In this document: positions 2,746-44,050 of the stretch, in pieces
Layout of the letters: every line of letters starts with the position of its first letter
Numbering within the stretch: position 1 is the first letter of the stretch
DNA from: Escherichia phage BEU33
Reading direction: 5' to 3' (one strand)
DNA: 44,050 nucleotides
Sequence record: OM632667.1
Made by a program: the position numbers and the translations under genes
The notes under the pieces: generated by a model
Database searches by the model: none
Told to the model about the DNA's origin: nothing
What the model saw: the letters and a program-made list of their open reading frames with translations, nothing else

Positions 2746-2755
2746 GTTCACATAT

Positions 2756-2779
2756 AGCCCCGAAAGGGGCTTTCTTATA
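2756..2779 (+). terminator. stem-loop AGCCCC-gaaa-GGGGCT followed by T-rich tract
   Basis: Perfect 6-bp stem seen directly after portal stop; weak U tract. Confidence 0.45.
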
Positions 2780-2814
2780 GTATGCTATTAACTTTAGTAC
2801 CACAGGGTTTAACT

Positions 2815-3855
2815 ATGAGCTTACTTACATCCCTCATCAGCCATCAGATATGGCTGCAACGCACCGCATCCGGTGAGGTGAAAGACCTCACACCGTTCAT
2901 TCAGGAGATGCGGGATGAAATTAAACGGCAGGTGCTGTTATTCGGTGACGACGGTCGTAGCACTGCGCGACTGAATAAATTGTTACGCGACCTTGAGGAA
3001 GCACTAACCGGACTTACGGGCGACTGGCAGACAAAGCTGACAGAAGACCTTAAGGAACTGGCGGCGTATGAGGCCGAGTGGAACGTAAAGACTCTGACCG
3101 CCAACGTTAACGCGGAATTTGTTACCCCTACCGCGGAACAGGTGTGGGCCGCTGCCGAGTTTCAGCCATTATCGTTGAGTGACAAGCCCGTTGATTTCAC
3201 TAAGCTGATGGACGGCTGGGGTGAAACAGAAGTCGCGCGCCTGGTAACCGGCGTTAAGATGGGCTTTGTACAAGGCCAAACCACACGGCAGATTGTTAAG
3301 AACGTCGTAGGCGCTGGCGGACTGGCGGACATCTCTGAGCGTAACGCGGCCACCGTAATCCGTACTGCACTGTCTCACGTATCCAACGAAGCACGTAACG
3401 AGACGTACCGCCAGAACGACGACATCATCGAGAAATATGAGTGGGTGTCTACGCTGGACAGCCGTACCAGTACTTGCAGGGCCAGAGACGGAATGACGTG
3501 GGAAATCGGTAAAGGTCCGATGCCACCAGCCCATCCTAATTGCCGAAGTACCACTGCACCGGTAATCAGTTCAGAGTTCGACTTCCTTGATAAAGGCGCA
3601 AAACGTGCGGCTAAGGGTGCGGACGGCGGTACTCAGGTAAGCGCAGACACCACTTACTACGAGTTCCTTAAACAACAACCGGCGTGGTTTCAGGACCAGG
3701 CCCTCGGCCCGGTGCGAGGTAAGATTTTCCGTAACAGCGGTATATCGCCGGAAGAGTTTCGCGTAATATCTGTAGATGGTTTCGGGAATCCGCTCACGCT
3801 TAAGCAGATGGCGGAACTCGATAAACGTGTTGCTGATTATCTGAAAGGGGAATAA
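2815..3855 (+). CDS. head morphogenesis protein (Mu F / SPP1 gp7-like minor head protein)
   Basis: Position after portal, size; ATG 2815 preferred over ORF-track ATG 2782 which sits inside the hairpin tail without RBS. Confidence 0.5.
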   Translation: MSLLTSLISHQIWLQRTASGEVKDLTPFIQEMRDEIKRQVLLFGDDGRSTARLNKLLRDLEEALTGLTGDWQTKLTEDLKELAAYEAEWNVKTLTANVNAEFVTPTAEQVWAAAEFQPLSLSDKPVDFTKLMDGWGETEVARLVTGVKMGFVQGQTTRQIVKNVVGAGGLADISERNAATVIRTALSHVSNEARNETYRQNDDIIEKYEWVSTLDSRTSTCRARDGMTWEIGKGPMPPAHPNCRSTTAPVISSEFDFLDKGAKRAAKGADGGTQVSADTTYYEFLKQQPAWFQDQALGPVRGKIFRNSGISPEEFRVISVDGFGNPLTLKQMAELDKRVADYLKGE

Positions 3856-3907
3856 TGATGGGCTTTTTCAAAGTAACTGATGTACCGTCGCGTCGCGTAG
3901 TCCAGTC

Positions 3908-4309
3908 GTGTCTGGCTCTGGCGAGAACGTGGTGTTTATTGAAGATGAAAGTGTACTCGGTACACCAGTAGACGATATGCCGTTTGCAGACAAGACAGGT
4001 ATCGCACTCTCTGCCGCTGGTATGCTTTATGAAATTCCGTATCTGGCGGACGCTGGTGACGTGTATTTCTCTGTGCAACCGAAAGACACTGAACTTACAG
4101 ATGGCAGCGCAACTATCACTGTCGAAGTTAAGGCGGGTAAAGCACCGTATGCTCTGACCTGGTACAAAGACGGTAAGGAAGTGGTAAACGCCCCGGAAGA
4201 GGCCTTGTCTCTGACGGTTAATGCAGTTGGTGAATACTTCGTTAAAGTTACCGATGCTGATGGTGTAGAGGCTGTCAGTAAAGCTGCGAAGGTCACTAAG
4301 CCCGAATGA
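3908..4309 (+). CDS. Ig-like domain protein, possible capsid accessory/decoration
   Basis: C-terminal motif LTWYKDGKEV..GEYFVKVTDADG typical of bacterial Ig-like domains; start is GTG with no RBS, so start is uncertain. Confidence 0.45.
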   Translation: MSGSGENVVFIEDESVLGTPVDDMPFADKTGIALSAAGMLYEIPYLADAGDVYFSVQPKDTELTDGSATITVEVKAGKAPYALTWYKDGKEVVNAPEEALSLTVNAVGEYFVKVTDADGVEAVSKAAKVTKPE

Positions 4310-4312
4310 TAA

Positions 4313-4340
4313 AAGGCCCCATTAAGGGGCCTTAGTTTTT
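4313..4340 (+). terminator. rho-independent terminator AAGGCCCC-attaa-GGGGCCTT plus T-tract
   Basis: 8-bp GC stem and AGTTTTT directly after the Ig-like gene stop. Confidence 0.75.
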
Positions 4341-4346
4341 AACTGA

Positions 4347-4375
4347 ATAGTACCCTATTATATTGGTGTGTGCAA
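4347..4375 (-). promoter_or_regulatory. promoter-like module TTGCAC-N17-TACTAT on minus strand
   Basis: Same hexamers and spacing as modules at 13582-13610, 37491-37519, 38709-38737; here it faces the terminator, so function is unclear. Confidence 0.3.
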
Positions 4376-4427
4376 ACTATTTATTTACGTATTCCAGTTA
4401 TTCCACTCAATTGTAAATGTTGGAATA

Positions 4428-4443
4428 AACTATTCGAATAGTT
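4428..4443. promoter_or_regulatory. perfect 16-bp palindrome AACTATTCGAATAGTT, candidate operator
   Basis: Exact inverted repeat; overlaps the -35 of the promoter at 4442-4470; half-site ACTATTC recurs in other promoter modules. Confidence 0.5.
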
Positions 4444-4470
4444 GACTTTTCACTGAAAATGTGCTAAGCT
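4442..4470 (+). promoter_or_regulatory. sigma70-like promoter TTGACT-N17-TAAGCT
   Basis: Hexamers and 17-bp spacer read directly; -10 is weak. Confidence 0.45.
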
Positions 4471-4517
4471 CCACCTGAGCTTGTGAAGTATGAACAAGCG
4501 ACCGCGGCGCGGGCAGG
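4465..4517 (+). repeat. 53-bp exact direct repeat, copy 1 (copy 2 at 37402-37454)
   Basis: Identical 53-mer TAAGCTCCACCTGAGCTTGTGAAGTATGAACAAGCGACCGCGGCGCGGGCAGG at both loci. Confidence 0.85.
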
Positions 4518-4677
4518 TAACGGAGCGGGACGTAAGTCCTGAGTGTAGTTACGCTGACGCGTTCGGAAGGGCCATACTCTATTGCTTGTGTAAAAAGTAA
4601 CTGGTTTACTGAGATTACGCCGTTTCTATGTTTAAATTATAAGGACTAGCGCCCCGCTTTAAGGCGGGGCTTTACTT
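4477..4677 (+). ncRNA. candidate small RNA or regulatory leader
   Basis: About 200 nt between promoter 4442-4470 and terminator 4651-4677 with no ORF of 60 aa or more; begins with the 53-bp repeat. Confidence 0.3.
4651..4677 (+). terminator. rho-independent terminator GCCCCGC-tttaag-GCGGGGC plus TTTACTT
   Basis: Perfect 7-bp GC stem followed by T-rich tract. Confidence 0.65.
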
Positions 4678-13566: not shown

Positions 13567-13581
13567 CGTTGGTGTAAGTGA

Positions 13582-13610
13582 ATAGTACGCTATTATATTG
13601 GGGAGTGCAA
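13582..13610 (-). promoter_or_regulatory. promoter TTGCAC-N17-TACTAT driving the minus-strand island
   Basis: Hexamers and spacing read on minus strand; -10 ends about 15 nt upstream of the Imm-like start codon. Confidence 0.5.
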
Positions 13611-16831: not shown

Positions 16832-18249
16832 TGAGCGACTTATACTTTCCACGTAGCCTTAAGCCGGTGGTATCAAAAGGCTACTCAATGACCAGACGTA
16901 ACAACGTCTGGAGTGTAGATTTAGCCGGTGGCGGAGTGCGTCAAGGCCGTGACACGTATTATGATGTGTTCCCAATAAGCGTAACCCTGATTACATCCGC
17001 AATGGGGCGGCAGGCGTTTCTGTCGTTCCTCGAGAAAGTCGATGGTGGCGCGTCAAGTTTCTGGATGGCGCACGACTTCGGCATGGGTATTGAGGATTAT
17101 CAAGTCACCATTACATCCACCGTCGCCGAGTCCACTGAAGACGGGATTAACTGGACAATTACTTTCACGGCAACCGCTGAGAAATCACCGTTCCAGGACC
17201 TCGAGAACCAGTGTCTGATTAACAATCTGCCAGATTTGTATGGCTGTTATGGTGATTGCCTGGGCAGTTTCCTGAAAATATACGCGAACTACGAGACTAC
17301 GTTCCCACGCATCTGGAGTAATGAAGGGCCTGCGGGATACCCGCCAATTAACCTTCTGGCGTCCGCGCTGGATAGCCGCATTGTTTATGAGGGGCCACAG
17401 GTTTACTACATCAACCGAAATGGCAATCTTGTGCGGTCCGCCGCCAATGAATGGCCTCTTACGTTCATTGACGGGGTTGCTGTTGGGCGTGTGCCACCAG
17501 AAGGCGGTTCTATTAACTACCAGATAGGCGGGTTAGGTATTGGGTGGGTACATACTTTCAACCGTATACCACTAACATCAACAGAGGACAGTGTATATCA
17601 AGGCAACCTGGCGGGCACAGTCACCCCAACAGCAGAAAATAACAGCCATTTCTTGTATGCCGAATCGCTGGGGGATTCAGTAATAGATGTTGGGGAAACA
17701 TATACTGCTACGGTAATTCTTAAGGCGAATGGTGTCCAGTTTATTCAGGTTTATTGGAACGCAGGTAGCACAGGGATTTCATCGCACTACTCTAACTTCG
17801 ACCTTATTAATAAAGCTGTATCAGGCACGGCGACATCGGCTTTCGTAACTGAAATATCTGATGGGTGGGTTCTATGCTCAACTACCACAACCGCGACAGG
17901 AGACGGTTCTGCACTATCCTCCATCGCGGTGGCAAGCGTACCGTCTATGACGTCTACCAGACTCCCGTCTTACGCATCGGATGGAGCATCTTCTTTTTCA
18001 GTTGCGTCCGCTCAGGTTGAAAAAAAACCATTTGCCACGTCGCCGATAGTAACTGACGCATCACCATCCGCCCGCCCGGCGGCATCGGCAAAAGTAGCAA
18101 TGAACGGCGCAACAAGCATCGACATTACCTATTCTGACGGCACTGTGGTAAACATTCCAGCGATTGGAGATTACGCCGCCATCCCACAGGCTGATTCTGC
18201 GTGGGGCAGTAAATACATCACTCGTATTGATTTTAATGTGGGCGGTTAA
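16831..18249 (+). CDS. minor tail protein (distal tail-like)
   Basis: Directly after tape measure, start overlaps its stop; position only. Confidence 0.45.
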   Translation: MSDLYFPRSLKPVVSKGYSMTRRNNVWSVDLAGGGVRQGRDTYYDVFPISVTLITSAMGRQAFLSFLEKVDGGASSFWMAHDFGMGIEDYQVTITSTVAESTEDGINWTITFTATAEKSPFQDLENQCLINNLPDLYGCYGDCLGSFLKIYANYETTFPRIWSNEGPAGYPPINLLASALDSRIVYEGPQVYYINRNGNLVRSAANEWPLTFIDGVAVGRVPPEGGSINYQIGGLGIGWVHTFNRIPLTSTEDSVYQGNLAGTVTPTAENNSHFLYAESLGDSVIDVGETYTATVILKANGVQFIQVYWNAGSTGISSHYSNFDLINKAVSGTATSAFVTEISDGWVLCSTTTTATGDGSALSSIAVASVPSMTSTRLPSYASDGASSFSVASAQVEKKPFATSPIVTDASPSARPAASAKVAMNGATSIDITYSDGTVVNIPAIGDYAAIPQADSAWGSKYITRIDFNVGG

Positions 18250-33330: not shown

Positions 33331-33558
33331 TTACTCGCCGTCGCCTTCTGTAAGGCTATCGTCTATTAATTCAAATTTACCGTTTGAGTGTTGGATAGCT
33401 TCTTGCCCGCAATGGTCGCAAACCACCAGTTTATCGAATCCGTCAAACTCGTCCCCGACTACGCAAGAAAGTACAAATTTATGTTTTGTACATACTTCTT
33501 GATGTTCACCGAAAATTACCCGGAAACATTTAGTTATAGCTCCAGTGATTATGTTCAT
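33331..33558 (-). CDS. small Cys-rich protein, putative zinc ribbon
   Basis: CxxC-type pattern CDHCGQ plus upstream Cys; RBS GAGGTGA; first gene of leftward operon. Confidence 0.5.
   Translation of the reverse strand: MNIITGAITKCFRVIFGEHQEVCTKHKFVLSCVVGDEFDGFDKLVVCDHCGQEAIQHSNGKFELIDDSLTEGDGE
33359..33518. repeat. inverted repeat, copy A of about 160 bp at about 87 percent identity to 34190-34349
   Basis: Hand alignment of the reverse complement of this segment with 34190-34349. Confidence 0.7.
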
Positions 33559-34107: not shown

Positions 34108-34189
34108 TCCAAATCCTCCTCTGTCACTGTCAACATTTCATTCGGTTCGTATATTGTCTTTGGAATCTTGTTATCAGTTATGTTTTCAC

Positions 34190-34349
34190 GCAATTTTCGG
34201 CGCACCGCAAGAAGTATGCACTAACCATAAATTTGTACTTTCTTGCGTGGTGGGGGATGAGTTTGATGGGTTCGATAAACTTATTGTCTGTGACCATTGC
34301 GGGCAAGAAGCTATACAACACTCAAACGGTAAATTCGAACTAATTAACG
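34190..34349 (+). repeat. inverted repeat, copy B; degenerate paralog of gene 33331-33558 without a credible start
   Basis: Encodes FGAPQEVCTNHKFVLSCVVGDEFDGFDKLIVCDHCGQEAIQHSNGKFEL on plus strand but has no ATG or RBS; overlaps the 3' end of the primase-helicase gene. Confidence 0.6.
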
Positions 34350-36542
34350 AATTCTGGTGTTCAGCCTGTAACGACCTGGGATTATCTGATTGTTTTCGTC
34401 AGTACCCGGAACAAGATACCCGGCCTCAACCATTTTCTTAATCTTCCCGCGTTCTATGGCTTCTTTGGAGTTAAACGCCTTTGCGTTGGGGTCTGACTGT
34501 GCGAGCTTATTCGCCGCGGCGACTGTGATGCCTTCGTTGCCGTTGTAGGTTCCTTCCGCCAGTTCAAACGCCGCGAGTATCGTGGCCTCCGAACTGTTGA
34601 CGGCGTTCTCTACGGTTTTACGTACATTTTCTTTACCTTCTTTCGTCAACCCTTCTTCCCGCTCTTTCTCCTCGTCAGTTTTGAACGGCTCGAAACCCCA
34701 CGGCATCAACACAAGCGCCTTGTGTGGTTCAGGCAGGTCCAGGTTTACGATTGTGCCGTATTCCTCTGTGCTACCCAGGAACTCAACCGCTCGGTATTCT
34801 TTAGGTGGCGGCGCTTCACGGAACTGTACCGACTCCAGCACCATGCCAACCGTCTTCTGCTGAGGCCCGTGCTTGAATTTCGAGTGATATACGTTTATCT
34901 GACGGTCGGTTGCACGTTCGATTGTCAGTTCCACATCAACACCCGCATACAGCGCCCCACTGCCGCGTGCTTTCTTTCCACCCTTCGGCGTATGGTGGAC
35001 AACGCCTACTGCGGCTTTAGTTGCATCGCGTACTTCTTTCAGAATGGCGATAACTTTACCCATGCCGATTGCTGTTGATGAACTGTTCTCGTCGAACTTA
35101 TCAATCGTCAGTGCCAGGGTCTGGTTAAGGGTGTCGAACGCAACCATGCCAATTGGCTCGTCGCCAGCAGTTTCGCGCATTAACTTAATCAGGCTTTTAA
35201 GTTTGCCGACTTCGCCCATATCGATGACATGTACATAATCTTTACCTTCCTCGCCGTATTTAGCCGCGAGCGCATCAATACGTGTACGTGTGGCTGCCCC
35301 ACCCTCGCCGTCGATATAGAAATGGTGACAACGCTGGGTGTCAGCCCCTGCAAACCGGTATCCGGCGGCGCTCAGGTACATCATCCCCAGCGTATAGAAT
35401 GATTTGTACGTGCCCGATTCTCCGACGATACCCCAGATACAATCCGACGGCATGTACCCCTCAACGACGAAATCAGCCTTTACCGGCTCCGGTAACTCGT
35501 CCTCCTCTGAGTCCTCGTCGTCTTCCAGGTCGTCGAGGCTGCATGAGACAGATTCACGCGCCCCCCAACCGATGGCCTCTGCGACTTCACTGAACGGCAG
35601 CCCGGTCGCATCGCACGCGTACTTCCACACCTCTTTCGGTGACAGGCCTTCTGTCGCCGTAATGTCTGTGTCGTGAATCATGGTTACGTTTGGCGCTTCA
35701 TACCCCTCGCGCGGGAAGCACAGCAGGAAGTCGTCCGGGCGCGGTGTCGGGTCGCTGTAGTTTTCAGCATGTTCCGGTGTGGCTGGCATCTTAAGGCCGC
35801 GCGGCGTCATGACGCCGCCGTACTCAAACGCCAGTGCTTCAAACGCGTCTGTAAACGCGGTGCGCAGTTCTTCCGGTATCTGGTAATCCGATGCGCTGCT
35901 AACGTCAACGGCTGGGATGCCTTCCAGTAACTCGTTCGGGTCGATCAGGTCGTTGCGGCGCGACCAGATAACGGTAGCGCCGACCGGCGGCAGGTACATC
36001 GGCTGCGACAGAGTGAACCCGCTGCGGTCCGCACCCATGCCTTTGAAGAAGTGCTCCAGCAACCCATGACGAACACGGATGATATCACCACCCTCAACTG
36101 GGCGGGCCAGCGGCATGACGACGCGAAAGCGAGGCGACTCATCGGTATGTGATGCCGTGGTGTAGAGACACATCGCCCGGCGGCTGCGATTAACCAGGCG
36201 CACCGCTTCCTGGTACTCTTCCGGTGTTGCACTGTCGAAGTCCAGATACGCCAGCGACGATTTGCTCACAGACGCGTCACAGCGATAGAAGAAGCCTTTA
36301 CGCGCTTGTTTAAAGCCACCGGTTTCCGGGTCTTTTACGGTGCTGTGTGTAGAATCGCACGCGGCCGTGATATAACCGGGCGCAGTCTTGGGGTTAATCC
36401 CGTCACGAACGGCATCGAGCGGCTGGATTAACTCTTTCAGGTCGTCCAGTGTTGCCGTGTGTGCGGTTCTGACATTTATATCCTTTTTCCCCGCCCGCGC
36501 GTTGCGGCGTGACCACGAGTAGGATAAAATTACATCGGACAT
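34344..36542 (-). CDS. DNA primase-helicase (AEP-type primase-polymerase domain plus RecA-like ATPase)
   Basis: DxD motif in AYLDFDS, SHTD motif, Walker A GESGTYKS, Walker B-like MVAFD. Confidence 0.6.
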   Translation of the reverse strand: MSDVILSYSWSRRNARAGKKDINVRTAHTATLDDLKELIQPLDAVRDGINPKTAPGYITAACDSTHSTVKDPETGGFKQARKGFFYRCDASVSKSSLAYLDFDSATPEEYQEAVRLVNRSRRAMCLYTTASHTDESPRFRVVMPLARPVEGGDIIRVRHGLLEHFFKGMGADRSGFTLSQPMYLPPVGATVIWSRRNDLIDPNELLEGIPAVDVSSASDYQIPEELRTAFTDAFEALAFEYGGVMTPRGLKMPATPEHAENYSDPTPRPDDFLLCFPREGYEAPNVTMIHDTDITATEGLSPKEVWKYACDATGLPFSEVAEAIGWGARESVSCSLDDLEDDEDSEEDELPEPVKADFVVEGYMPSDCIWGIVGESGTYKSFYTLGMMYLSAAGYRFAGADTQRCHHFYIDGEGGAATRTRIDALAAKYGEEGKDYVHVIDMGEVGKLKSLIKLMRETAGDEPIGMVAFDTLNQTLALTIDKFDENSSSTAIGMGKVIAILKEVRDATKAAVGVVHHTPKGGKKARGSGALYAGVDVELTIERATDRQINVYHSKFKHGPQQKTVGMVLESVQFREAPPPKEYRAVEFLGSTEEYGTIVNLDLPEPHKALVLMPWGFEPFKTDEEKEREEGLTKEGKENVRKTVENAVNSSEATILAAFELAEGTYNGNEGITVAAANKLAQSDPNAKAFNSKEAIERGKIKKMVEAGYLVPGTDENNQIIPGRYRLNTRIR

Positions 36543-36600
36543 GTTGTATTTCCTTCAGCAAGTAATTTGGCCTCGGCGTTCACCGCGTCGGGGCTTTCTT

Positions 36601-36834
36601 TTATTCCAGGTCTTCTAAAGTAGCGGTCATTCCGCGAACTTCAGCAAAGGCACTATATTTCCCGCCAACATTTTTCACGACGCCAGATTTAACCAGCACT
36701 TTTAACGACCCTTCAATAATGACGGAACTATAGTACTTAAAATAACTGCGGCGCAAGTCGATAACGCTGCACGACCCTTTTTTACGTGTCAACGAAACGA
36801 CCGCCGTAAATACGCGTGACTGAAACTCGGTCAT
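36601..36834 (-). CDS. hypothetical protein
   Basis: 77-aa ORF coupled to the downstream primase operon. Confidence 0.4.
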   Translation of the reverse strand: MTEFQSRVFTAVVSLTRKKGSCSVIDLRRSYFKYYSSVIIEGSLKVLVKSGVVKNVGGKYSAFAEVRGMTATLEDLE

Positions 36835-37001
36835 TTCACGTTCTCCTTAATCCACGCTTCCACTTTCTCCGGGTCGAACGTACCGGGCTGCCGGCGACCC
36901 ATAATGCGGATACAACAATCAGGGAACCTCCCACTCTTTAACCAGTTATTAAGCGTGCGGCGAGTAACCCCGATACGCTCAGCTACTTCATTCTGTGTCA
37001 T
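36831..37001 (-). CDS. AlpA/Xis-like HTH DNA-binding protein
   Basis: MTQNEVAERIGVTRRTLNNWLKSGRFP pattern; ATG 37001 with GAGGG RBS preferred over TTG 37034. Confidence 0.55.
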   Translation of the reverse strand: MTQNEVAERIGVTRRTLNNWLKSGRFPDCCIRIMGRRQPGTFDPEKVEAWIKENVK

Positions 37002-37401
37002 TCTCAAACCCTCATTATCAGTTAACGAAACCAAGTATACATTGCGAATAATGGGAAATCAAACATAATCGCACCTATTGACATTATGAAAATCTTCGTT
37101 TAAGGTGCTTCTATATCTTAGTTACTTTGATTCCTGTTCACCTTGTAATACCTGCTTGAAACGCAGCGGCGCCAAAGCGCCAGCGAAGTGTTAAGCAGCA
37201 GATTACTGAACATAAGAATTACCGTAACTTTCCTTCCGTAGTATCTCTGGTTGCCCTGGGCAAGCTCTATTCTCATCGGCAGCATATCTCTTAAGTATCT
37301 GATAATTAAAAGTTTCTATAGTTGCCGTGAGCAAGGTAGAGAGTACTTCACTCCGCTGGGGTGGGCTAACGCCCACCCACTGCGTTGCGTACTCTTTTAA
37401 G

Positions 37402-37454
37402 TAAGCTCCACCTGAGCTTGTGAAGTATGAACAAGCGACCGCGGCGCGGGCAGG
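37402..37454 (+). repeat. 53-bp exact direct repeat, copy 2
   Basis: Identical to 4465-4517; lies in the divergent intergenic region 37035-37553. Confidence 0.85.
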
Positions 37455-37490
37455 AAACGAAAGAATCACAACGGCAACGTAACTATTCTC

Positions 37491-37519
37491 TTGCACACCC
37501 CAACATAATAGGATACTAT
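37491..37519 (+). promoter_or_regulatory. promoter TTGCAC-N17-TACTAT
   Basis: -10 ends about 35 nt upstream of ATG 37554. Confidence 0.5.
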
Positions 37520-37553
37520 TCACTTATCGAAACGAGACAGAGGAGTGAGGGTT

Positions 37554-37745
37554 ATGTTTAAGAAGGGTCAGTTGGTTAAAACTAAACGCGGAGGGCAATA
37601 TGTATTAGTGTTGCAGGACGAGAGCGAGTATGACGAGGATAATCTGGTTGACGTATGGGGTCTGGTAAGAAAGAAAACTGGGTTCGCCTCACGCGATAAT
37701 TTAGAACTCATCGGCAACAATTTTAAATTCAAAGGGGTGAAGTGA
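37554..37745 (+). CDS. hypothetical protein
   Basis: ATG 37554 with RBS GAGGAGTGAGGG. Confidence 0.4.
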   Translation: MFKKGQLVKTKRGGQYVLVLQDESEYDEDNLVDVWGLVRKKTGFASRDNLELIGNNFKFKGVK

Positions 37746-37951
37746 TGGAAGAATTAATTTGTATTGAATCCCGCCAGGATTGGTTTGTGAAAGGTAACAA
37801 ATATTCGTCAGGAGTATATTACGACGGCCGTCGATACGTTTTAGATGAAGACGGTGATGAATGGGATTTAGAGGACACTGTGGGCGAGACTTTAACCGTT
37901 AGTTTTCTTCAATGTTGTTTCCGCATCATTCACAACGGCATCGAATCATGA
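37745..37951 (+). CDS. hypothetical protein
   Basis: ATG with RBS AAAGGGGTGA. Confidence 0.4.
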   Translation: MEELICIESRQDWFVKGNKYSSGVYYDGRRYVLDEDGDEWDLEDTVGETLTVSFLQCCFRIIHNGIES

Positions 37952-38033
37952 GGCTCGTGCCGACGACTCTGAGGGAGGTTGCCGTGGATAATATTTTAAT
38001 TGTCAGCGCTGTTTATGTGGGGTGGAGGTTGAT

Positions 38034-38228
38034 ATGAGTCCATATAATGAATTCCGCTTACGCCGTCTTGTTGGTGGGCTGCGCGCCGCCGAGTTTGGCG
38101 TTGAATGTTGGGAAAAGGCGAAGTACACCCCATGGAAGTCGTGGAATTTGGCCCACGCTAAGGCGGTAGCGCAGTACCGGGAGTACAAGTTAAATAGTTT
38201 CCTAAAGCACCACGGGGTAGAGCTATGA
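38034..38228 (+). CDS. hypothetical protein
   Basis: ATG 38034 with RBS GGAGG. Confidence 0.4.
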   Translation: MSPYNEFRLRRLVGGLRAAEFGVECWEKAKYTPWKSWNLAHAKAVAQYREYKLNSFLKHHGVEL

Positions 38229-38368
38229 GAGAAGCATTCGAACGGTGGGCCGTCGTCGAGGGTCTGCCGGTTAACAAGGGTTCAAAGAAAGAGTACCTGA
38301 ACGTTAAGACGCGTCTTGCGTGGCGGGCGTGGAAAGCTGGTGTGCAGTATGTGATGAATACGAGGTGA
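38225..38368 (+). CDS. hypothetical 47-aa protein
   Basis: Below ORF-track cutoff; ATGA overlap with upstream stop; fills gap. Confidence 0.3.
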   Translation: MREAFERWAVVEGLPVNKGSKKEYLNVKTRLAWRAWKAGVQYVMNTR

Positions 38369-38371
38369 TTT

Positions 38372-38560
38372 ATGGGTGAGTGGATTAAGTGTAGTGAGCG
38401 GATGCCGGAGCCTTATGAATACGTTCTTGTAACTGATTGTTTTGTTGGCTGTGAGGTTATGCGTGTTAATTCGGATGGCTACTGGGGACCAGCGAAGAGT
38501 TTATACCACGGCGATATCTCCCACTGGATGCCCTTACCTGAGCCACCGGCGCCGGTGTAA
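38372..38560 (+). CDS. hypothetical protein, DUF551-like
   Basis: C-terminal HWMPLPEPP motif; RBS GAGGTGA. Confidence 0.4.
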   Translation: MGEWIKCSERMPEPYEYVLVTDCFVGCEVMRVNSDGYWGPAKSLYHGDISHWMPLPEPPAPV

Positions 38561-38594
38561 CAGGTCAATAGTTTACTATTTGGCTTTGTGACTT

Positions 38595-38630
38595 ACGCTG
38601 CTACACAGCAGCGTATCATTTTTCTCATTT
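38595..38630 (+). terminator. rho-independent terminator ACGCTGCT-acac-AGCAGCGT plus T-tract
   Basis: Perfect 8-bp stem then ATCATTTTTCTCATTTTT. Confidence 0.65.
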
Positions 38631-38708
38631 TTGTTCTATTTCACCAAACGCAACAATCGAAGCGACTATTGCGGGAGATGCAACAATACAAACACCAATA
38701 AAATTTAC

Positions 38709-38737
38709 TTGCACGCTAAGATAGAATAGGCTACTAT
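38709..38737 (+). promoter_or_regulatory. promoter TTGCAC-N17-TACTAT
   Basis: Same hexamers and spacing as 37491-37519; precedes gene 38794. Confidence 0.5.
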
Positions 38738-38793
38738 TCATTTACACAAACGAGAGGAGAGACAGAAGATGAATGTAGTGGCGAGGGAAGGGG

Positions 38794-39282
38794 ATGGGGA
38801 TGGTGAGTAGCAAAAACGAAGTATTCGAGTACCTGATTGACCAGTTACGGCAGCACGTAAATAGCCACCCGCACAAGCAGCAGTGCGAAGACCTGGCGCA
38901 TGAGGTGCAGTCACTCAAGAATCAGTTACGTGATGCGTCAGCACTGGTGGCGGAGTTACATGAAACAATAAAACTAATGAACGAGGACTTTAACCGTGCA
39001 ACCGGGCGAGGTGGCTCACTGCCGAAAGGGGAGAGCTACGTAGTAGGTGAACATGGGCCCGAGCAACCCGGTTGCCGTAAGGAAGATACTCAGGAATGCG
39101 AGCACTCTTGGATTATTATGCTTGGGTTGTTTCTCAGCGAAGGCAATACGAACAACGTTCCTGGTAGTGAGCTTTGCTCTAAATGTGGTAAACGTGAGTG
39201 GGACGACAAGGTATATAAACCGAAAAACGATACTCAGGAATGTGAGCATGAGTGGAGATGTAAGACGGTTTTTTGGCAATAG
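38794..39282 (+). CDS. hypothetical Cys/His-rich protein with internal repeated DTQECEH(S/E)W motif
   Basis: Two copies of the motif about 45 residues apart; RBS GAGGGAAGGGG. Confidence 0.45.
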   Translation: MGMVSSKNEVFEYLIDQLRQHVNSHPHKQQCEDLAHEVQSLKNQLRDASALVAELHETIKLMNEDFNRATGRGGSLPKGESYVVGEHGPEQPGCRKEDTQECEHSWIIMLGLFLSEGNTNNVPGSELCSKCGKREWDDKVYKPKNDTQECEHEWRCKTVFWQ

Positions 39283-39327
39283 ACCTGGTGTTCCGTATTG
39301 CCGTAAATGTGGTGTGGAGGCGAAGCA

Positions 39328-39531
39328 ATGACCAGCATCTTATTTATCTGGGTACTATCCGCGGGCCAGATGCAACTAGCGGCATCAGAAACGTTTTATT
39401 CGATGGAGGCGTGCCAGTCAGCGGCGCGTGCCGCAGAGAACGCGCACTTCCTGTTTCAGGGCGACAAGCCCATCGATTCAGAGGTACGCGCTATCTGCTC
39501 ACCTAAGCGACTTGGTAAACAGGAGAAGTGA
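39328..39531 (+). CDS. small protein with N-terminal signal-peptide-like segment
   Basis: MTSILFIWVLSAGQMQLAASE hydrophobic N-terminus; RBS GGAGG. Confidence 0.4.
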   Translation: MTSILFIWVLSAGQMQLAASETFYSMEACQSAARAAENAHFLFQGDKPIDSEVRAICSPKRLGKQEK

Positions 39532-39533
39532 TT

Positions 39534-39716
39534 ATGGTGCGGAGATATACCTACGACCAGATATTCGGGTTTACTCCTGATGTTGAGGGCGTGTTAGTGC
39601 TTTACGAAGATTACGCGAAACTTGAAGCTGAGTTACAGAAATACAAAGACCAGTACCCTGATTATGTCGAGTGCGCGAACTGTGGGTCGGTTACACATGT
39701 GGAGGGAGTGGAGTGA
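39534..39716 (+). CDS. hypothetical protein
   Basis: RBS AGGAG; C-terminal CANCGS. Confidence 0.35.
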   Translation: MVRRYTYDQIFGFTPDVEGVLVLYEDYAKLEAELQKYKDQYPDYVECANCGSVTHVEGVE

Positions 39717-40009
39717 TGTCGTTAGCAACTGACATCCTGAAACGAAGCGGCCTTGCGCCGCTGTCACCGAGAGCGAAGACACGTATACACAAGCGTCGCC
39801 GTAACGTGCTGTACCCAGAGATTCAGGACAGACGTAAAGCTATCCGCGCCTGTGGATTCCAGAACGGGAAGGCTGTGAATCTCGGTGAGTTTAAAACGCA
39901 GGAGCGCGCTGCAATCGCTAATCGGTTATTTAATTACTGGAAATCGCTGGGATACGATGATATTCCGACGAAACCACAGAGACGACAATACATCTGGCGT
40001 CATAAATAA
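39716..40009 (+). CDS. hypothetical DNA-binding protein, AP2-like domain
   Basis: GKAVNLGEFKTQERAAIANRLF resembles the AP2 fold signature; ATG overlaps upstream TGA. Confidence 0.35.
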   Translation: MSLATDILKRSGLAPLSPRAKTRIHKRRRNVLYPEIQDRRKAIRACGFQNGKAVNLGEFKTQERAAIANRLFNYWKSLGYDDIPTKPQRRQYIWRHK

Positions 40010-40039
40010 ACCGTTATTAAGATAATTCCTAACCGTGCT

Positions 40040-40079
40040 ATCCTCCAGTTACTGCATACTTAATACGCACCTGGAGGAT
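40040..40079 (+). promoter_or_regulatory. inverted repeat ATCCTCCAG-N22-CTGGAGGAT whose 3' arm contains the holin RBS
   Basis: Perfect 9-bp arms; GGAGG of the holin RBS is inside the 3' arm. Confidence 0.4.
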
Positions 40080-40084
40080 TCATC

Positions 40085-40393
40085 TTGGATAAATTTACTG
40101 AAACAGTGACAGGCTGGCTTCTCGCTGCCGCGCTAGCCGGAGGGGTAATCGGACTACGACAACATAAGTCTGTTATTTCTGGCCCCATCGACGGATTCTG
40201 CTTTATCGCAACCGGCTTCACTTGCGCTGTATTCGGCGCGCCTCTTGCCGCTCAATGGTTCGGTATTACCGGAGAGCGCGAGATAGCTGGCCTCGGATTC
40301 ATCATCGCAATTCTCTGGATGCCCATCTATTCCCGTCTCTCCGGTATCGTCTCTGGAGAATACATCGCTCGTCGAGGAGGCACAGATGAATGA
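40085..40393 (+). CDS. holin (three predicted TM segments)
   Basis: Three hydrophobic segments, charged C-terminus; first gene of lysis cassette; TTG start with GGAGG. Confidence 0.55.
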   Translation: MDKFTETVTGWLLAAALAGGVIGLRQHKSVISGPIDGFCFIATGFTCAVFGAPLAAQWFGITGEREIAGLGFIIAILWMPIYSRLSGIVSGEYIARRGGTDE

Positions 40394-40658
40394 GTTATTC
40401 TGGTTCGGTGGTATGCTGGCAATCGGGGGCACATCGCTGTTTAATGTGTATCATCCCAGCGTGGACGACGGATTATTTGGCCGGGTGCTCTATATCCTGA
40501 CTGCCATCGTCTGTGCTGCCGGATGTATCCACCTGTTACAGGGCAGCATGTCACCAACGCTGCCTGAGACGTTAATCACATTAGTTGCGCTGCGTCAGAT
40601 TCGCCAGGTGTGGCTGTCATACGGAGGACATAAGCGTGTCTCGAAATATTTCAGATAA
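40386..40658 (+). CDS. second holin-like membrane protein (holin or antiholin)
   Basis: Two hydrophobic segments; overlaps both holin stop and lysozyme start. Confidence 0.45.
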   Translation: MNELFWFGGMLAIGGTSLFNVYHPSVDDGLFGRVLYILTAIVCAAGCIHLLQGSMSPTLPETLITLVALRQIRQVWLSYGGHKRVSKYFR

Positions 40659-41124
40659 TGGATTGCATTTTACCGCCGCGTTCGAGGGATTCCGAGGAAC
40701 TGCGTATCGCGCTACACCGAATGAGAAGTACCTGACTATTGGGTATGGAAGCTATGGCCCGCATGTTAAGGCGGGGCAGACCATCACTCCAGGACAAGGC
40801 CTCCTGTTACTTAATCGCGATATGGCTAAAGCCGTAGCTGCGGTTGATGCGGCAGCGCACCATTCACTGACACAGGCACAGTTCGACGCTGTGTGTGACC
40901 TGGTCTACAACGCAGGCGCTGGCGTGATTGCCGCTACCACGGGCACAGGTAAGGCGCTGCGTTCTGGTGACATCGAGACGCTGCGGGCTAAGCTGACACT
41001 GTTCATCAACCAGAACGGCAGACCACTACTCGGCCTGCGTCGCCGTACAGCAGGTCGTCTGGCGCTGTTTGACGGTAAACCGTGGCAAGAGGCGGAGGCA
41101 ATTGGGCGCGCGGTGAAAGGTTGA
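40636..41124 (+). CDS. endolysin, lysozyme (GH24-like muramidase)
   Basis: Pattern ISDNGLHFTAAFEGFRG..YLTIGYG..QFDAVCDLVYNAG resembles the P22 gp19/T4 lysozyme family; GTG 40636 with RBS GGAGGA preferred. Confidence 0.85.
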   Translation: MSRNISDNGLHFTAAFEGFRGTAYRATPNEKYLTIGYGSYGPHVKAGQTITPGQGLLLLNRDMAKAVAAVDAAAHHSLTQAQFDAVCDLVYNAGAGVIAATTGTGKALRSGDIETLRAKLTLFINQNGRPLLGLRRRTAGRLALFDGKPWQEAEAIGRAVKG

Positions 41125-41190
41125 CACCTAAGACTAATCCGACGATACTTAAATCACCTCCTGTTCCATCCCTCTGCTCTCCAGTTTTAT

Positions 41191-41221
41191 CCCGGCCCTG
41201 ACCCAGCCGGGATTTTTTTTT
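41191..41221 (+). terminator. rho-independent terminator CCCGGC-N9-GCCGGG plus T9
   Basis: GC stem followed by ATTTTTTTTT after the lysis cassette. Confidence 0.7.
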
Positions 41222-41243
41222 ATCTATTTTCGGTAATGACTAG

Positions 41244-41272
41244 TTGACTATTACCCTCGACCCTATTATATT
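41244..41272 (+). promoter_or_regulatory. sigma70-like promoter TTGACT-N17-TATATT
   Basis: Good hexamers; precedes gene 41306. Confidence 0.6.
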
Positions 41273-41305
41273 TACTCCATCGACAACGAGAACGGAGTAG
41301 AGAAG

Positions 41306-41503
41306 ATGAGTAACGTACCGACAATCGCAATAACCGAGGAACTTGAAGCCAAATGTATCGCATCAGTTATAGGGAATGGTTCGGTGGAAAAACTACAGAT
41401 GAGGGCCGCTGCGGGCTACATACGCAGGGCTAATAGCGCGCAGACTGATGTTTTACGTAAACGTTACCTCGTGAAAGCGTTAGAAATACTGGAGAATAAC
41501 TAA
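41306..41503 (+). CDS. hypothetical protein
   Basis: RBS GGAG; first gene after promoter. Confidence 0.4.
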   Translation: MSNVPTIAITEELEAKCIASVIGNGSVEKLQMRAAAGYIRRANSAQTDVLRKRYLVKALEILENN

Positions 41504-41652
41504 TGAAAATCACAGATATCGAAGCATTCAAAGACGCGCAACTGATGGCACGTATCGCCGTTAGTAACCTTAGCAACAGCATCCCGGCAGACGCGTTCTG
41601 GTTCGCTGCGATGCAGACACTTAAAGCAGCATATGCAGGAGAGAAGAAATGA
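41503..41652 (+). CDS. hypothetical 49-aa protein
   Basis: Below ORF-track cutoff; TAATG overlap; RBS GGAG. Confidence 0.3.
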   Translation: MKITDIEAFKDAQLMARIAVSNLSNSIPADAFWFAAMQTLKAAYAGEKK

Positions 41653-41846
41653 AAGTTAAAGCAGCTAAAATTCTCTGGTTACCCGCCCTTGACTATGTGA
41701 CAGAGGGTAAAGTGTATGACGTATACAACCCGAAAACTACTGGTTTTGGTTATATAGTTGCCGATGACGGCTGTGATATTTACATAGACTTTGGTAGCGA
41801 TGAAGGTGATGGTTTCCACGGCGTTAAATGGGAGATTGTCGAATGA
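41649..41846 (+). CDS. hypothetical protein
   Basis: ATGA-coupled ORF. Confidence 0.4.
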   Translation: MKVKAAKILWLPALDYVTEGKVYDVYNPKTTGFGYIVADDGCDIYIDFGSDEGDGFHGVKWEIVE

Positions 41847-42001
41847 GCGAACAAACACCAATCAGCCAACCGTTACGAGTAGGCCGTAAAGTCAGTCACA
41901 CCCCGTTCCCGACACGCGAGGAACTGATGAAACGTAACAGTTTCCCGGGGCCGGACAAGAACAAGTATCTCAATCGCATGTGGGGAGAGCGTAAAGAATG
42001 A
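41843..42001 (+). CDS. hypothetical 52-aa protein
   Basis: Below ORF-track cutoff; RBS GGGAG; ATGA overlaps at both ends. Confidence 0.3.
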   Translation: MSEQTPISQPLRVGRKVSHTPFPTREELMKRNSFPGPDKNKYLNRMWGERKE

Positions 42002-42183
42002 CTGACCGCGAATATGAAAAGATGATGGTTGAGGCCGTTAACAGCGGCGTAGACATCGGACACGTGATGTGCGTCCTGAATACTAAAATCGCGGTAGCCG
42101 AGCAAATGGTCGAGTCGCTTTACGAGACGCGCCGTGAACTGATTAACCGCTTCAACCTGAACAAAGGTGACACCAATGCCTAA
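41998..42183 (+). CDS. hypothetical protein
   Basis: Coupled ORF. Confidence 0.4.
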   Translation: MTDREYEKMMVEAVNSGVDIGHVMCVLNTKIAVAEQMVESLYETRRELINRFNLNKGDTNA

Positions 42184-42463
42184 AATCACAATCGCATCTC
42201 TCGAGCGCCGTATTCTGGTGCTTGAGTCGGAGAAACAGACGTTAGGCGGGCAACTGTCGATTAACGGTGAGTTTCAGCTGGAGGCGTTCCGTATACTCCT
42301 CGGCGTTATGAAGCAGGAACCCAGCGCATACGCGGGAGTGTTCCTTGACGAGGAAGGTTCGCAGACACTAAGTTACTACGCTACCGAAGAAGAATTAGCG
42401 TTCGACGGCCCCGCGGTATCTATCCCGCTGTTCGATAACTGGATGGTGTACGACTATGACTAA
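42176..42463 (+). CDS. hypothetical protein
   Basis: ATG 42176 with RBS AAAGGTGA preferred over GTG 42167. Confidence 0.4.
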   Translation: MPKITIASLERRILVLESEKQTLGGQLSINGEFQLEAFRILLGVMKQEPSAYAGVFLDEEGSQTLSYYATEEELAFDGPAVSIPLFDNWMVYDYD

Positions 42464-42641
42464 AGCGCCTGAACCAGTAGTTATCGATGGCGTCCTGTGG
42501 AAGCCATACTCGGTTTACCACATCGACGCCGACGGGAAGAAGTTTAGCTTCTACATTTTTGCAATTAGCCGTGAGCACGCCGCTTGTGTGGTTGACGATA
42601 TTCGAGAAACGGCGTGGCTTGGTGATGAGATAGCGGGGTGA
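42456..42641 (+). CDS. hypothetical protein
   Basis: Coupled ORF. Confidence 0.4.
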   Translation: MTKAPEPVVIDGVLWKPYSVYHIDADGKKFSFYIFAISREHAACVVDDIRETAWLGDEIAG

Positions 42642-42728
42642 GAGTATGAGTCTCGAGGTGGTTATCGGTCTGGTGGGTCTTAGTTACTTCATTGGGCTGT
42701 TGGTTGGGTTTCTGTGGGGTAAATACTA

Positions 42729-42899
42729 ATGTTCAGTGACATTAACGCGGCAATCGAAGAAGCAATCTGGCGTCGCTACAACGGCGAGCAACAACGGCAT
42801 TTCTGCCTGGTGCAACGCGGTAACATGATTGCCGTAGTGCAGGACCGCGATAACAAATATCCGAATGCGATGTGGACAACGAGGAATTTTTTAGGATGA
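42729..42899 (+). CDS. hypothetical 56-aa protein
   Basis: Below ORF-track cutoff; fills gap; weak RBS. Confidence 0.25.
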   Translation: MFSDINAAIEEAIWRRYNGEQQRHFCLVQRGNMIAVVQDRDNKYPNAMWTTRNFLG

Positions 42900-43132
42900 T
42901 TACCAGCATTCCGAACCTGATTAAAGAATTCGGCACGATGGCCGAGACATGCCGGCAAACCGGCATCAACGAAATGACGATTGCGAAGTACAGCAAAGAC
43001 GTTGATTGCGAGCGCCACGTAATTTATAACAATCGTCTGATGACACATGTTAAGACAAGCCCGGTGTTATTCACGCGCCGAGGTATCACTAAAACTGAGC
43101 AACGCATTGCTAAAGGGGAGAGTGGGGAATGA
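42896..43132 (+). CDS. hypothetical protein, possible HTH
   Basis: ATG 42896; segment TMAETCRQTGINEMTIAKYSK is HTH-like. Confidence 0.35.
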   Translation: MITSIPNLIKEFGTMAETCRQTGINEMTIAKYSKDVDCERHVIYNNRLMTHVKTSPVLFTRRGITKTEQRIAKGESGE

Positions 43133-43311
43133 TTGAGATTTTGAGGGCTACGAATGTTGCTGGTGACCTGGTGTTTTGGCTGGCCTTTCTCGGTGTGCTG
43201 ATAAAACAACCGACTCTGTTTAACAGTCTCCCTCGTTACCTGTGGTGGCCTATGTTTTTAGGCATGGGTGTATCAGGCGTGGCAGGCATCCTTTTGTGGT
43301 TTTTCAAATGA
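43129..43311 (+). CDS. small membrane protein (two TM segments)
   Basis: Two hydrophobic segments; ATG overlaps upstream stop. Confidence 0.4.
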   Translation: MIEILRATNVAGDLVFWLAFLGVLIKQPTLFNSLPRYLWWPMFLGMGVSGVAGILLWFFK

Positions 43312-43412
43312 GACTACTAATCATCCCTAACGCCTGGGCCATTCCCGTAGCCAACGACCATTACGGCGGCGACGGTAAAAGAGCGCAACGACACGGCCTA
43401 TACAACTGATAC

Positions 43413-43438
43413 AAGCCCTCTACGGAGGGCTTTTCTGT
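43413..43438 (+). terminator. rho-independent terminator AAGCCCTC-tacg-GAGGGCTT plus TTTCTGT
   Basis: Perfect 8-bp stem with tetraloop and T-tract. Confidence 0.7.
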
Positions 43439-43530
43439 ACATCCCGCCCAATCCCCTTATATAATCTATTTAGACGCGTAGGGCGCGTCTGGTGCGCTCT
43501 GATGGTCAGACGCATATGCAAGGGGATTCT

Positions 43531-44040
43531 ATGAAGCTGAAACTTAAGCAGCCATCGCCAGAGGTGGTGCAAGCTGCACATGAAGAAGCTGTTAGCGCAA
43601 ACCGTCGCCGTAAACAACCGCGCGGTAAACAGAGCCTTTATCAATCATCCCGTAATTCCGCTGCGCTGTGGGACCCGGACTATTGCGACGAATTGATTCG
43701 TTTCTTTGACCGCACGTCGTGGGAGCTTGTGCCAACGTCTAAGGGTGATGAACGCCCACTGATTCAGGATAAGCCGCCGTCACTGGCCCGCTTCGCCTTA
43801 CACATCGGCGTAACTATCCCGATAATTAAGCTGTGGCTGCGCGAGATTCCCGCATTTGCAGAAGCATACGAAACCGCCCAGGCTCTGGAAGAGGCATACT
43901 TCACTGAGACAGGGGCTGCGGGCATCTCGGCTACGTTTGCTGCCGCGAAACTGGGCCTGAATAAAACAGTTGTCGCCGAAGAAGTACGCGACGAGCCAAT
44001 CAGCGAAGTAACAATTAAGGTGGTGTCCGGTGAACGTTAA
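43531..44040 (+). CDS. terS: terminase small subunit
   Basis: Immediately upstream of terL start; HTH-like middle region; ATG 43531 with RBS AGGGGA preferred over GTG 43492. Confidence 0.6.
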   Translation: MKLKLKQPSPEVVQAAHEEAVSANRRRKQPRGKQSLYQSSRNSAALWDPDYCDELIRFFDRTSWELVPTSKGDERPLIQDKPPSLARFALHIGVTIPIIKLWLREIPAFAEAYETAQALEEAYFTETGAAGISATFAAAKLGLNKTVVAEEVRDEPISEVTIKVVSGER

Positions 44041-44050
44041 TATCACGGCA
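44030..44050 (+). CDS. terL: 5' start of terL (continues at position 1 if the molecule is circular or permuted)
   Basis: GTG 44030 preceded by AAGGTGGTG, overlapping terS stop; frame runs without stop into frame 1 at position 1. Confidence 0.5.

Follow-up and report, generated by a model that had tools for sequence, protein, structure and literature searches.

What does a small phage gene encode when it carries the same Cys/His motif twice, stops shortly after the second copy and is preceded by a 13-codon open reading frame (ORF) that overlaps its start? This situation is found in Escherichia phage BEU33 (OM632667.1), of which we analysed a stretch of 44,050 nucleotides (the window); the gene in question lies on its plus strand at positions 38,794 to 39,282. 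We consider it probable that the locus holds a member of an uncharacterised accessory family, PHROG 6094, in which zinc-ribbon-like units stand on a coiled-coil stem, that the last of these units has been frameshifted, that the upstream ORF is the remnant of another gene, and that transcription starts from a phage-type promoter. The family is thus already catalogued yet uncharacterised, and the allele in the window is a new, damaged member of it.

The ORF and both copies of DTQECEH(S/E)W are present as a first-pass annotation of this DNA had reported. Copy 1 (DTQECEHSW) occupies residues 98-106 (nt 39085-39111) and copy 2 (DTQECEHEW) residues 146-154 (nt 39229-39255), a measured spacing of 48 residues rather than the roughly 45 first given for the duplication. 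At the DNA level the copies form a 20-nt direct repeat with 19 of 20 positions identical (repeat family D13). That annotation had also placed further cysteines near each copy, which holds for copy 1, whose CxxC partner is in frame (CSKCGK, residues 128-133), but fails for copy 2, whose partner CRKCG (nt 39299-39313) lies past the stop codon in the +1 frame. In an alignment of 33 two-unit homologues, one row of which is the window's own protein, C99, H101, C125, C128, C147 and H149 (P0004 numbering) are invariant; C166 and C169 are present in at least 90% of the sequences, with the window protein among the rows that lack them. Upon extension to 73 sequences, including a distant subfamily, C125 and C128 remain invariant and C91, C99, H101 and W103 are each found in at least 90%. 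As judged from these alignments, the duplicated DTQECEH motif is a conserved, non-chance feature. Because the ligand positions are invariant or at least 90% kept, the motif residues count as conserved among homologues, and the tandem Cys/His metal-binding module originally proposed is upheld as a prediction, with AlphaFold modelling the corresponding beta units at a predicted local distance difference test score (pLDDT) of ~70-83.

The ORF is short because a 1-nt insertion shifts the frame within its last unit. As read from the genome the ORF is FRAMESHIFTED, and its second module is incomplete both in the window and in Escherichia phage BEU35 (OM632668; Guernseyvirinae, Kagunavirus), which shares 99.9% identity over the region 38560-39540; some 330 further Kagunavirus and Jerseyvirus records match this region at lower identity. 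The two genomes carry a run of six T's where six relatives (BPS11Q3, SHWT1, PHZ055, SE-W109 and two metagenomic contigs; L004 and L006-L010 in our numbering, that is L004, L006, L007, L008, L009 and L010) have five, reading GACGGTTTTTGG with otherwise almost identical flanks. SP124 (L011) and contig L017 also encode the last unit, here called D, in frame, giving eight relatives with D in frame, in six of which T5 was read directly. Two homologues, P0002 and P0004, terminate exactly in …EWRCKTVFGNRPGVPYCRKCGVEAKQ, the window sequence minus one T. At its end the +1 frame reads caATGAcc, where it shares with the downstream phrog_3766 gene the ATGA overlap used by relatives. The extra T would therefore, by its position, end the product in …EWRCKTVFWQ*, with the CRKCG knuckle lost from it, although the +1 frame still encodes that knuckle. 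Ending as it does after C150-x-H152, the window ORF lacks the complete terminal CxH…CxxC unit typical of PHROG 6094, and this frameshifted last unit is what sets the allele apart from the other members. Decayed terminal units were found in a few further members of the family, such as P0101 and P0047.

PHROG 6094 is a family of unknown function whose gene is carried by Guernseyvirinae siphophages, and the window protein matches its hidden Markov model over profile positions 2-110 of 142 in two stretches. A word-indexed phmmer search returned 1335 homologues of the window protein. When 1.84 billion cluster representatives were searched exhaustively with a profile, 81 matched at E ≤ 0.001, so the family is narrow. 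Its general layout, shared by the window protein, consists of an N-terminal coiled coil, a disordered linker PEQSGCRKEDTQ and one to four CxH…CxxC modules, and members such as K1ind1 ORF38 (ADA82386), BPS11Q3_26 and 5sent1 QNI21785 occupy the same position upstream of the phrog_3766 gene. In some relatives the coiled coil contains an insert, or a small additional beta domain (phrog_9174) separates coil and ribbons. In phrog_23836 (MATLKEHQ…), a distant subfamily, the N-terminus is unrelated, while the coiled coil, the linker PEQ[SA]GCRK[ED]DTQ.CEH.W and one ribbon are retained. Linker and first knuckle are together the most conserved element of the family: at least 90% of sequences, the distant subfamily included, keep linker residues E87, Q88, G90, C91, K93, D95 and Q97. 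The linker carries an invariant extra cysteine (C91), and it is repeated two to three times in some proteins (P0123, P0124, P0125 and P0131 were examined).

The modules themselves were surveyed in the best 120 homologues, where a unit was defined as CxH-x(10-23)-CxxC and a type as at least 60% identity at equal length. This gave 275 units of 27 types in 45 arrangements. Thirteen proteins have one unit, 62 have two, 43 have three and three have four. A long unit (A; spacer of 23 between H and CxxC) almost always comes first and is followed by short units with spacers of 10-17; the window arrangement is A-D. The number and type of units after A vary between closely related phages. The DNA coding for DTQECEH (GATACTCAGGAATGyGAGCA) is near-identical at both positions in most relatives, and in contig L018 (protein P0082) unit A is absent with its breakpoint exactly inside the shared 20-nt repeat (GCRKEDTQEC joined to EHEWEYYYPDG), which is the outcome expected of recombination between two repeat copies. 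The repeat may accordingly be named a candidate recombination point between units. A special DNA-level constraint at these junctions was considered and rejected: synonymous variants occur, and there is therefore no evident constraint beyond coding and short homology. In four phages (BPS11Q3, SHWT1, PHZ055 and SP124) the main gene is of A-B-C or B-C type and the D unit follows it as a small ORF of its own (MADCFCTRC…CEHEWRCKTVFGNRPGVPYCRKCGVEAKQ*). From this arrangement, the 3′ end beside the phrog_3766 gene looks like a fixed anchor, with new units apparently inserted upstream of it. The separate ORF has 63 residues (MADCFCTRC…CRKCGVEAKQ*), starts in overlap with the stop of the main gene and is annotated only in PHZ055; it lies at 837-1023 of L004, 599-790 of L008, 599-790 of L009 and ~604-800 of L011.

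Structure predictions of the window protein depended on the breadth of the alignment supplied. With 33 sequences, AlphaFold gave usable confidence for the helices only, the ribbons remaining at pLDDT <50. A more diverse set of 73 sequences gave a mean pLDDT of 75.6: helices 3-20 and 23-67 reached 86-96, the linker (residues 77-92) stayed below 50, and units A (~80-83; strands 103-106, 122-125 and 131-133) and D (~70-77; strands 151-153 and 164-166) were modelled as beta structure. Residues 31-70 follow a clean heptad pattern (a/d positions CVLVIF/LLALMA, 92% hydrophobic). The family is acidic in both halves, with a median isoelectric point of 5.35. Foldseek searches against BFVD were significant for family members only (K1ind1 D2XJK8 and SE-W109), and the sub-threshold lists from both PDB and BFVD are enriched for zinc ribbons (Rpb9, TFIIS, LEF-5, NrdR and the Nudix N-terminal ribbon). 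Pfam zinc-ribbon matches below cutoff fall on the CxxC knuckles, and the conserved positions show the ligand pattern of the class, four Cys/His in two knuckles. Together, sequence and model support describing the units as zinc-ribbon-like on a coiled-coil stem, a statement of fold class without membership of any characterised family. Like the zinc-ribbon class (Zn_Ribbon_1 PF13240, DZR PF12773, Rpb9, TFIIS/LEF-5), PHROG 6094 has two knuckles and four ligands, with a putative beta hairpin between them, and the tandem arrangement resembles that of Rpb9 and DZR; the first knuckle, however, is CxH instead of CxxC, and searches found no sequence homology of the family to characterised ribbon proteins.

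Several observations weigh against this account of the locus. No function for PHROG 6094 emerged from Pfam, NCBIfam, PADLOC, PHROG annotations, fold searches or the literature. Scans with Pfam, NCBIfam and PADLOC of the whole protein, isolated units, distant members and neighbouring genes gave nothing at cutoff, and literature searches on Kagunavirus zinc proteins, phrog_6094 and Guernseyvirinae/Jerseyvirinae returned only a time-course of phage K1B4. Foldseek against PDB gave no significant match (best E=1.6; all template modelling (TM) scores <0.3). The Pfam zinc-ribbon models stayed below their cutoffs, PF13240 at 16.9 bits against 25 and DZR at 10.9 against 27.3. The structural differences between the window and BEU35 raise the possibility of an assembly artefact around a 171-bp segment that has moved (see below). 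Finally, T6 is known from two nearly identical genomes only, which leaves room for a shared homopolymer sequencing error.

This last point leads to the alternative that T6 is a sequencing or assembly error in two related assemblies and that the true product is an intact, 178-residue two-ribbon protein. The two genomes that share T6 may stem from one laboratory and one pipeline, BEU35 carries the flag UNVERIFIED_ORG and lacks annotation, a product look-up found no record of the exact 162-residue product elsewhere, and the structural differences between the two genomes are odd. The exact T5/T6 context pattern had zero matches in viral, metagenome and genome contig collections. Nonetheless, comparison of the window with BEU35 base by base revealed no homopolymer-length difference, the indels that were seen lying outside homopolymers; a T5/T6 run is short for a systematic error; and the broken terminal units of P0101 and P0047 indicate that natural decay of the last unit does occur. 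Given the lack of homopolymer differences, the sequences modestly favour a real mutation over a platform error, although the two genomes are too close to be independent, and we regard the error account as unlikely while keeping it in view.

Accepting a frameshifted member of a coiled-coil and zinc-ribbon-like family, what might such a protein do? The acidic halves, the narrow family, the position in an accessory block and a C-terminal array that is hypervariable among near-identical phages lead us to a tentative proposal, in which a coiled-coil oligomer (dimer or trimer) could display the ribbons as interchangeable protein-binding cassettes against variable host targets. These targets might belong to host defence or to host takeover. 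The truncated allele would retain the coiled coil and ribbon A and would have lost the specificity of ribbon D. A more specific version, which we find doubtful, would make PHROG 6094 a hitherto unrecognised type of modular counter-defence or host-takeover factor with a constant stem and ribbon A, its cassettes being swapped at the DTQECEH-coding repeats to retarget it, with the T5/T6 run as one of several means of switching off single cassettes.

The order of parts, a coiled coil followed by putative zinc units, also recalls an RNA polymerase- or nucleic-acid-binding transcription factor in the style of DksA/TraR or Rpb9/TFIIS, the chief competing view of its function, and the top fold matches, themselves non-significant, are the ribbons of Rpb9, TFIIS, LEF-5 and NrdR. 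In gross architecture the window protein is indeed like DksA/TraR, in which a coiled coil and a C4 zinc finger act at the RNA polymerase secondary channel. However, neither the DksA/TraR model nor any transcription-factor family gave a match, and zf-dskA_traR was absent from the Pfam and NCBIfam scans even at E up to 1. The DksA/TraR finger is CxxC-x17-CxxC as opposed to CxH…CxxC in PHROG 6094, in which the number of units varies as well. DksA has an antiparallel hairpin with a DxxDxA tip, whereas the window helix is a single heptad coiled coil. The fold matches all have E >1 and TM <0.3, the protein is acidic throughout, and a factor docking on a conserved polymerase would not usually have ribbons of hypervariable number and type. 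A transcription factor of this kind therefore strikes us as improbable. Two other resemblances were set aside. The acidic coiled-coil stretch SLKNQL…VAEL weakly matches the RecBCD inhibitor T7 gp5.9 (PDB 8b1r, phrog_9014), which, unlike the window protein, has no zinc units; E-values of 0.004 (PHROGs) and 0.035 (PDB profile) weakened to 0.29 with a single sequence, among kinesin and tropomyosin, which we read as coiled-coil noise. The label "putative tolA-binding protein" on 5sent1 QNI21785 has as its sole basis a weak coiled-coil similarity to PF16331 (E=0.14).

A further account of the T6 run treats it as a programmed +1 ribosomal frameshift or slippage site yielding both 162- and 178-residue isoforms. 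Following a +1 slip on U UUU UGG, tRNA-Phe could pair again without mismatch, and the +1 frame is open as far as the family's normal stop. Yet the shift site is not conserved, all eight relatives with a D unit having it in frame; the A-site codon at the slip is UGG, neither rare nor a stop; and no Shine-Dalgarno-like element stands at the ~3-nt spacing of prfB-type sites, the nearest GGAG being ~12 nt upstream. For these reasons we judge programmed frameshifting very unlikely. Six T's are also short for efficient transcriptional slippage.

Transcription of the gene appears to be served by a promoter of its own, as the first-pass annotation had stated, and this promoter would be of a phage-specific class. 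The motif TTGCAC-N17-TACTATTC has four exact copies in the window, at 4345-4375(-), 13580-13610(-), 37491-37521(+) and 38709-38739(+), against a chance expectation of 0.18 matches with two mismatches allowed. The 37491 copy heads the plus-strand block at a divergent junction, and the 38709 sequence also precedes the homologous small gene of K1ind1 and L018. A strict generic sigma-70 scan found no promoter at the locus; on the recurrence of the motif, it is likely the phage's own promoter consensus, overlooked by that scan. The spacers of the four copies share a partly conserved ATAATAG-like element. Upstream lies a terminator-like hairpin (38594-38615) with a 9-bp stem including five GC pairs, a 4-nt loop and the tail TCATTTTTCT, and the unit would be transcribed from the phage-consensus promoter located after it. 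The early expression named in the first-pass annotation is putative: in the Kagunavirus K1B4 time-course, 4 early, 42 middle and 11 late genes were distinguished, without a mapping transferable to this locus (PMC12645636).

The 13-codon ORF preceding the gene is real as described, with a ribosome-binding site (RBS) of GGAG type and a stop that overlaps the start region of the main ORF (ATG 38794, ATG 38800 and GTG 38803). In BEU35, the same position holds a 70-codon ORF, MNVVARCFHAIF…INEEGDGDGE* (phrog_32657, function unknown; intact form E=6.6e-41 in PHROG). The metagenomic contig L018 encodes a protein identical to it and K1ind1 an unannotated homologue of 71 residues, and the promoter, RBS and stop/start overlap of the intact gene are the same in both. 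The window ORF consists of codons 1-6 and 64-70 of this gene, the central 171 bp being gone, and an in-frame deletion at a CGAG microhomology would account for the reduction from 70 codons to 13. The remnant keeps the RBS, start and stop/start overlap of its parent and may thus still pass ribosomes to the zinc-ribbon gene. Nine other relatives examined have unrelated small genes upstream, six of which overlap the start of the zinc-ribbon gene by 8-17 nt; from these sequences, the conserved trait is the stop/start overlap with whichever gene lies upstream, and translational coupling to that gene would therefore be common at the locus. The leader-peptide regulation hinted at by the first-pass annotation is hardly credible in this light, for despite a good RBS and a stop that overlaps the downstream start, the supposed regulatory peptide is made of the two ends of a gene intact in three other genomes (BEU35, K1ind1 and L018), its short form is found nowhere else, and the other relatives put unrelated genes in its place.

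The missing 171 bp are found elsewhere in the window, where they interrupt the minus-strand helicase-primase gene near its 3′ end, with 24 codons to go to the normal stop; the reading frame meets a new stop two codons into the insert, leaving 732 residues in the window versus 755 in BEU35. None of 56 relatives has the segment at this site. The segment is flanked by AT microhomology at its destination and CGAG at its origin. The window and BEU35 are not colinear, and their rearrangements could be real microhomology-mediated (illegitimate) recombination or misassembly; real or artefact, they are the reason why the upstream ORF has only 13 codons.

For annotation, these results change how the locus would be described. 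Gene callers report a 162-residue protein and an unexplained gap before the next gene, for which a frameshifted two-ribbon gene would be the correct description, and the 13-codon ORF should be entered neither as a gene nor as a leader peptide. If the function is mundane, this is an ordinary lesion in an ordinary hypothetical gene. The lesion is ordinary in any case, and the part deserving specialist attention is the cassette-like shuffling of ribbons: PHROG 6094 offers a compact case of domain-cassette shuffling in which the 20-nt breakpoint repeat also encodes a predicted metal-ligand knuckle. Where a non-structural protein varies in this way, an interface with the host is often involved, which makes the family a sensible choice for anti-defence or host-takeover screens in Kagunavirus and Jerseyvirus, phages of which are in use for biocontrol of E. 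coli K1 and Salmonella.

Table 1. Positions of the zinc-ribbon-like gene of the window, its parts and the associated features discussed in the text.
Feature	Positions	Strand	Evidence or remark
Cys/His ORF as read in the genome, 162 residues: coiled coil, module A, half of module D	38794..39282	+	PHROG 6094, E=6.1e-50
N-terminal helical/coiled-coil region (predicted), residues ~3-67	38800..38994	+	AlphaFold helices; heptad a/d positions
Conserved linker GPEQPGCRKEDTQE, predicted disordered	39049..39096	+	family consensus PEQ[SA]GCRK[ED]DTQ; pLDDT <50
Module A, long type, complete: C102-x-H104-x23-C128-x2-C131	39097..39186	+	strands 103-106, 122-125 and 131-133 at pLDDT ~80
Module D, first half: C150-x-H152 …RCKTVF, then out-of-frame tail WQ	39241..39279	+	orphan CxH, no in-frame CxxC partner
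T6 run (T5 in relatives) with the 1-nt insertion	39269-39274	+	window and BEU35 read GACGGTTTTTTGG
+1-frame continuation GNRPGVPYCRKCGVEAKQ*, displaced second knuckle of module D	39275..39331	+	follows the ORF stop at 39280-39282; ends in the ATGA overlap
67-residue downstream gene (MTSILFIW…; phrog_3766, function unknown)	39328..39531	+	start overlaps the normal stop of the PHROG 6094 gene
13-codon ORF MNVVAREGDGDGE*, remnant of the 70-codon small Cys/His gene (phrog_32657)	38769..38810	+	comparison with BEU35, L018 and K1ind1
Junction of the 171-bp in-frame deletion, CGAG microhomology	38782..38785	.	window 37454-38785 = BEU35 34563-35894; window 38782-44050 = BEU35 36063-41330
171 bp missing from the small gene, relocated into the 3′ end of the helicase-primase gene	34180..34350	+	100% identical to BEU35 35895-36065
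Intact paralogue of the small Cys/His gene, 78% protein identity	33331..33558	-	tblastn E=1.6e-32
Promoter-like site TTGCAC-N17-TACTATTC	38709..38739	+	-35 at 38709-38714, -10 at 38732-38737
Intrinsic terminator-like hairpin and T tract, end of the upstream DUF551 gene block	38594..38625	+	hairpin 38594-38615

The zinc-ribbon gene lies in a cluster of small accessory genes, which is preceded by the minus-strand replication genes (helicase-primase, 34344..36542) and followed by holin-like genes (40085.. and 40386..) and a lysozyme gene (40585..). The locus is rich in small Cys-containing proteins. Two positions downstream, a 62-residue gene product (39528-39716; phrog_29624) has a C-terminal CxxC…H motif, ECANCGSVTH, and a weak Lar-like match (E=0.065).

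Homologues of the small upstream gene are spread over 56 phage records, among them records of T7-like Kayfunavirus, in whose early region LM33_P1 gp4 lies between the kinase and RNA polymerase genes. The phrog_32657 family, with members of ~70-75 residues containing CDHCG, is thus common to Kagunavirus siphophages and the Kayfunavirus early region. BEU35 has two paralogous copies; the family's sites are window 33331-33558 (-), BEU35 35878-36087 and L016 1770-1997.

Further differences from BEU35 are spread over the window. A 58-bp segment (4465-4522) is duplicated at 37402-37459 as a direct repeat with one mismatch. BEU35 lacks this second copy, which the window carries as an insertion in its divergent intergenic region, immediately before the 37491 promoter motif. 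The block 1798-4464 is placed differently: window 1798-3473 corresponds to BEU35 41332-43007 (97.9% identity, 35 mismatches) and window 3474-4131 to BEU35 43905-44569, apart from 7 bp deleted at 3907. For window 4132-4464 there is no equivalent in BEU35, nor does the window contain BEU35 43008-43904. Nine substitutions fall within the 64 bp of window 17403-17466 in an otherwise near-identical stretch of 29.7 kb, a cluster that looks like a small recombination patch. At window 23826, just downstream of a 171-residue minus-strand gene identical in both genomes, one base is deleted relative to BEU35 (GCAA-GCC versus GCAACGCC), with no clear coding consequence.

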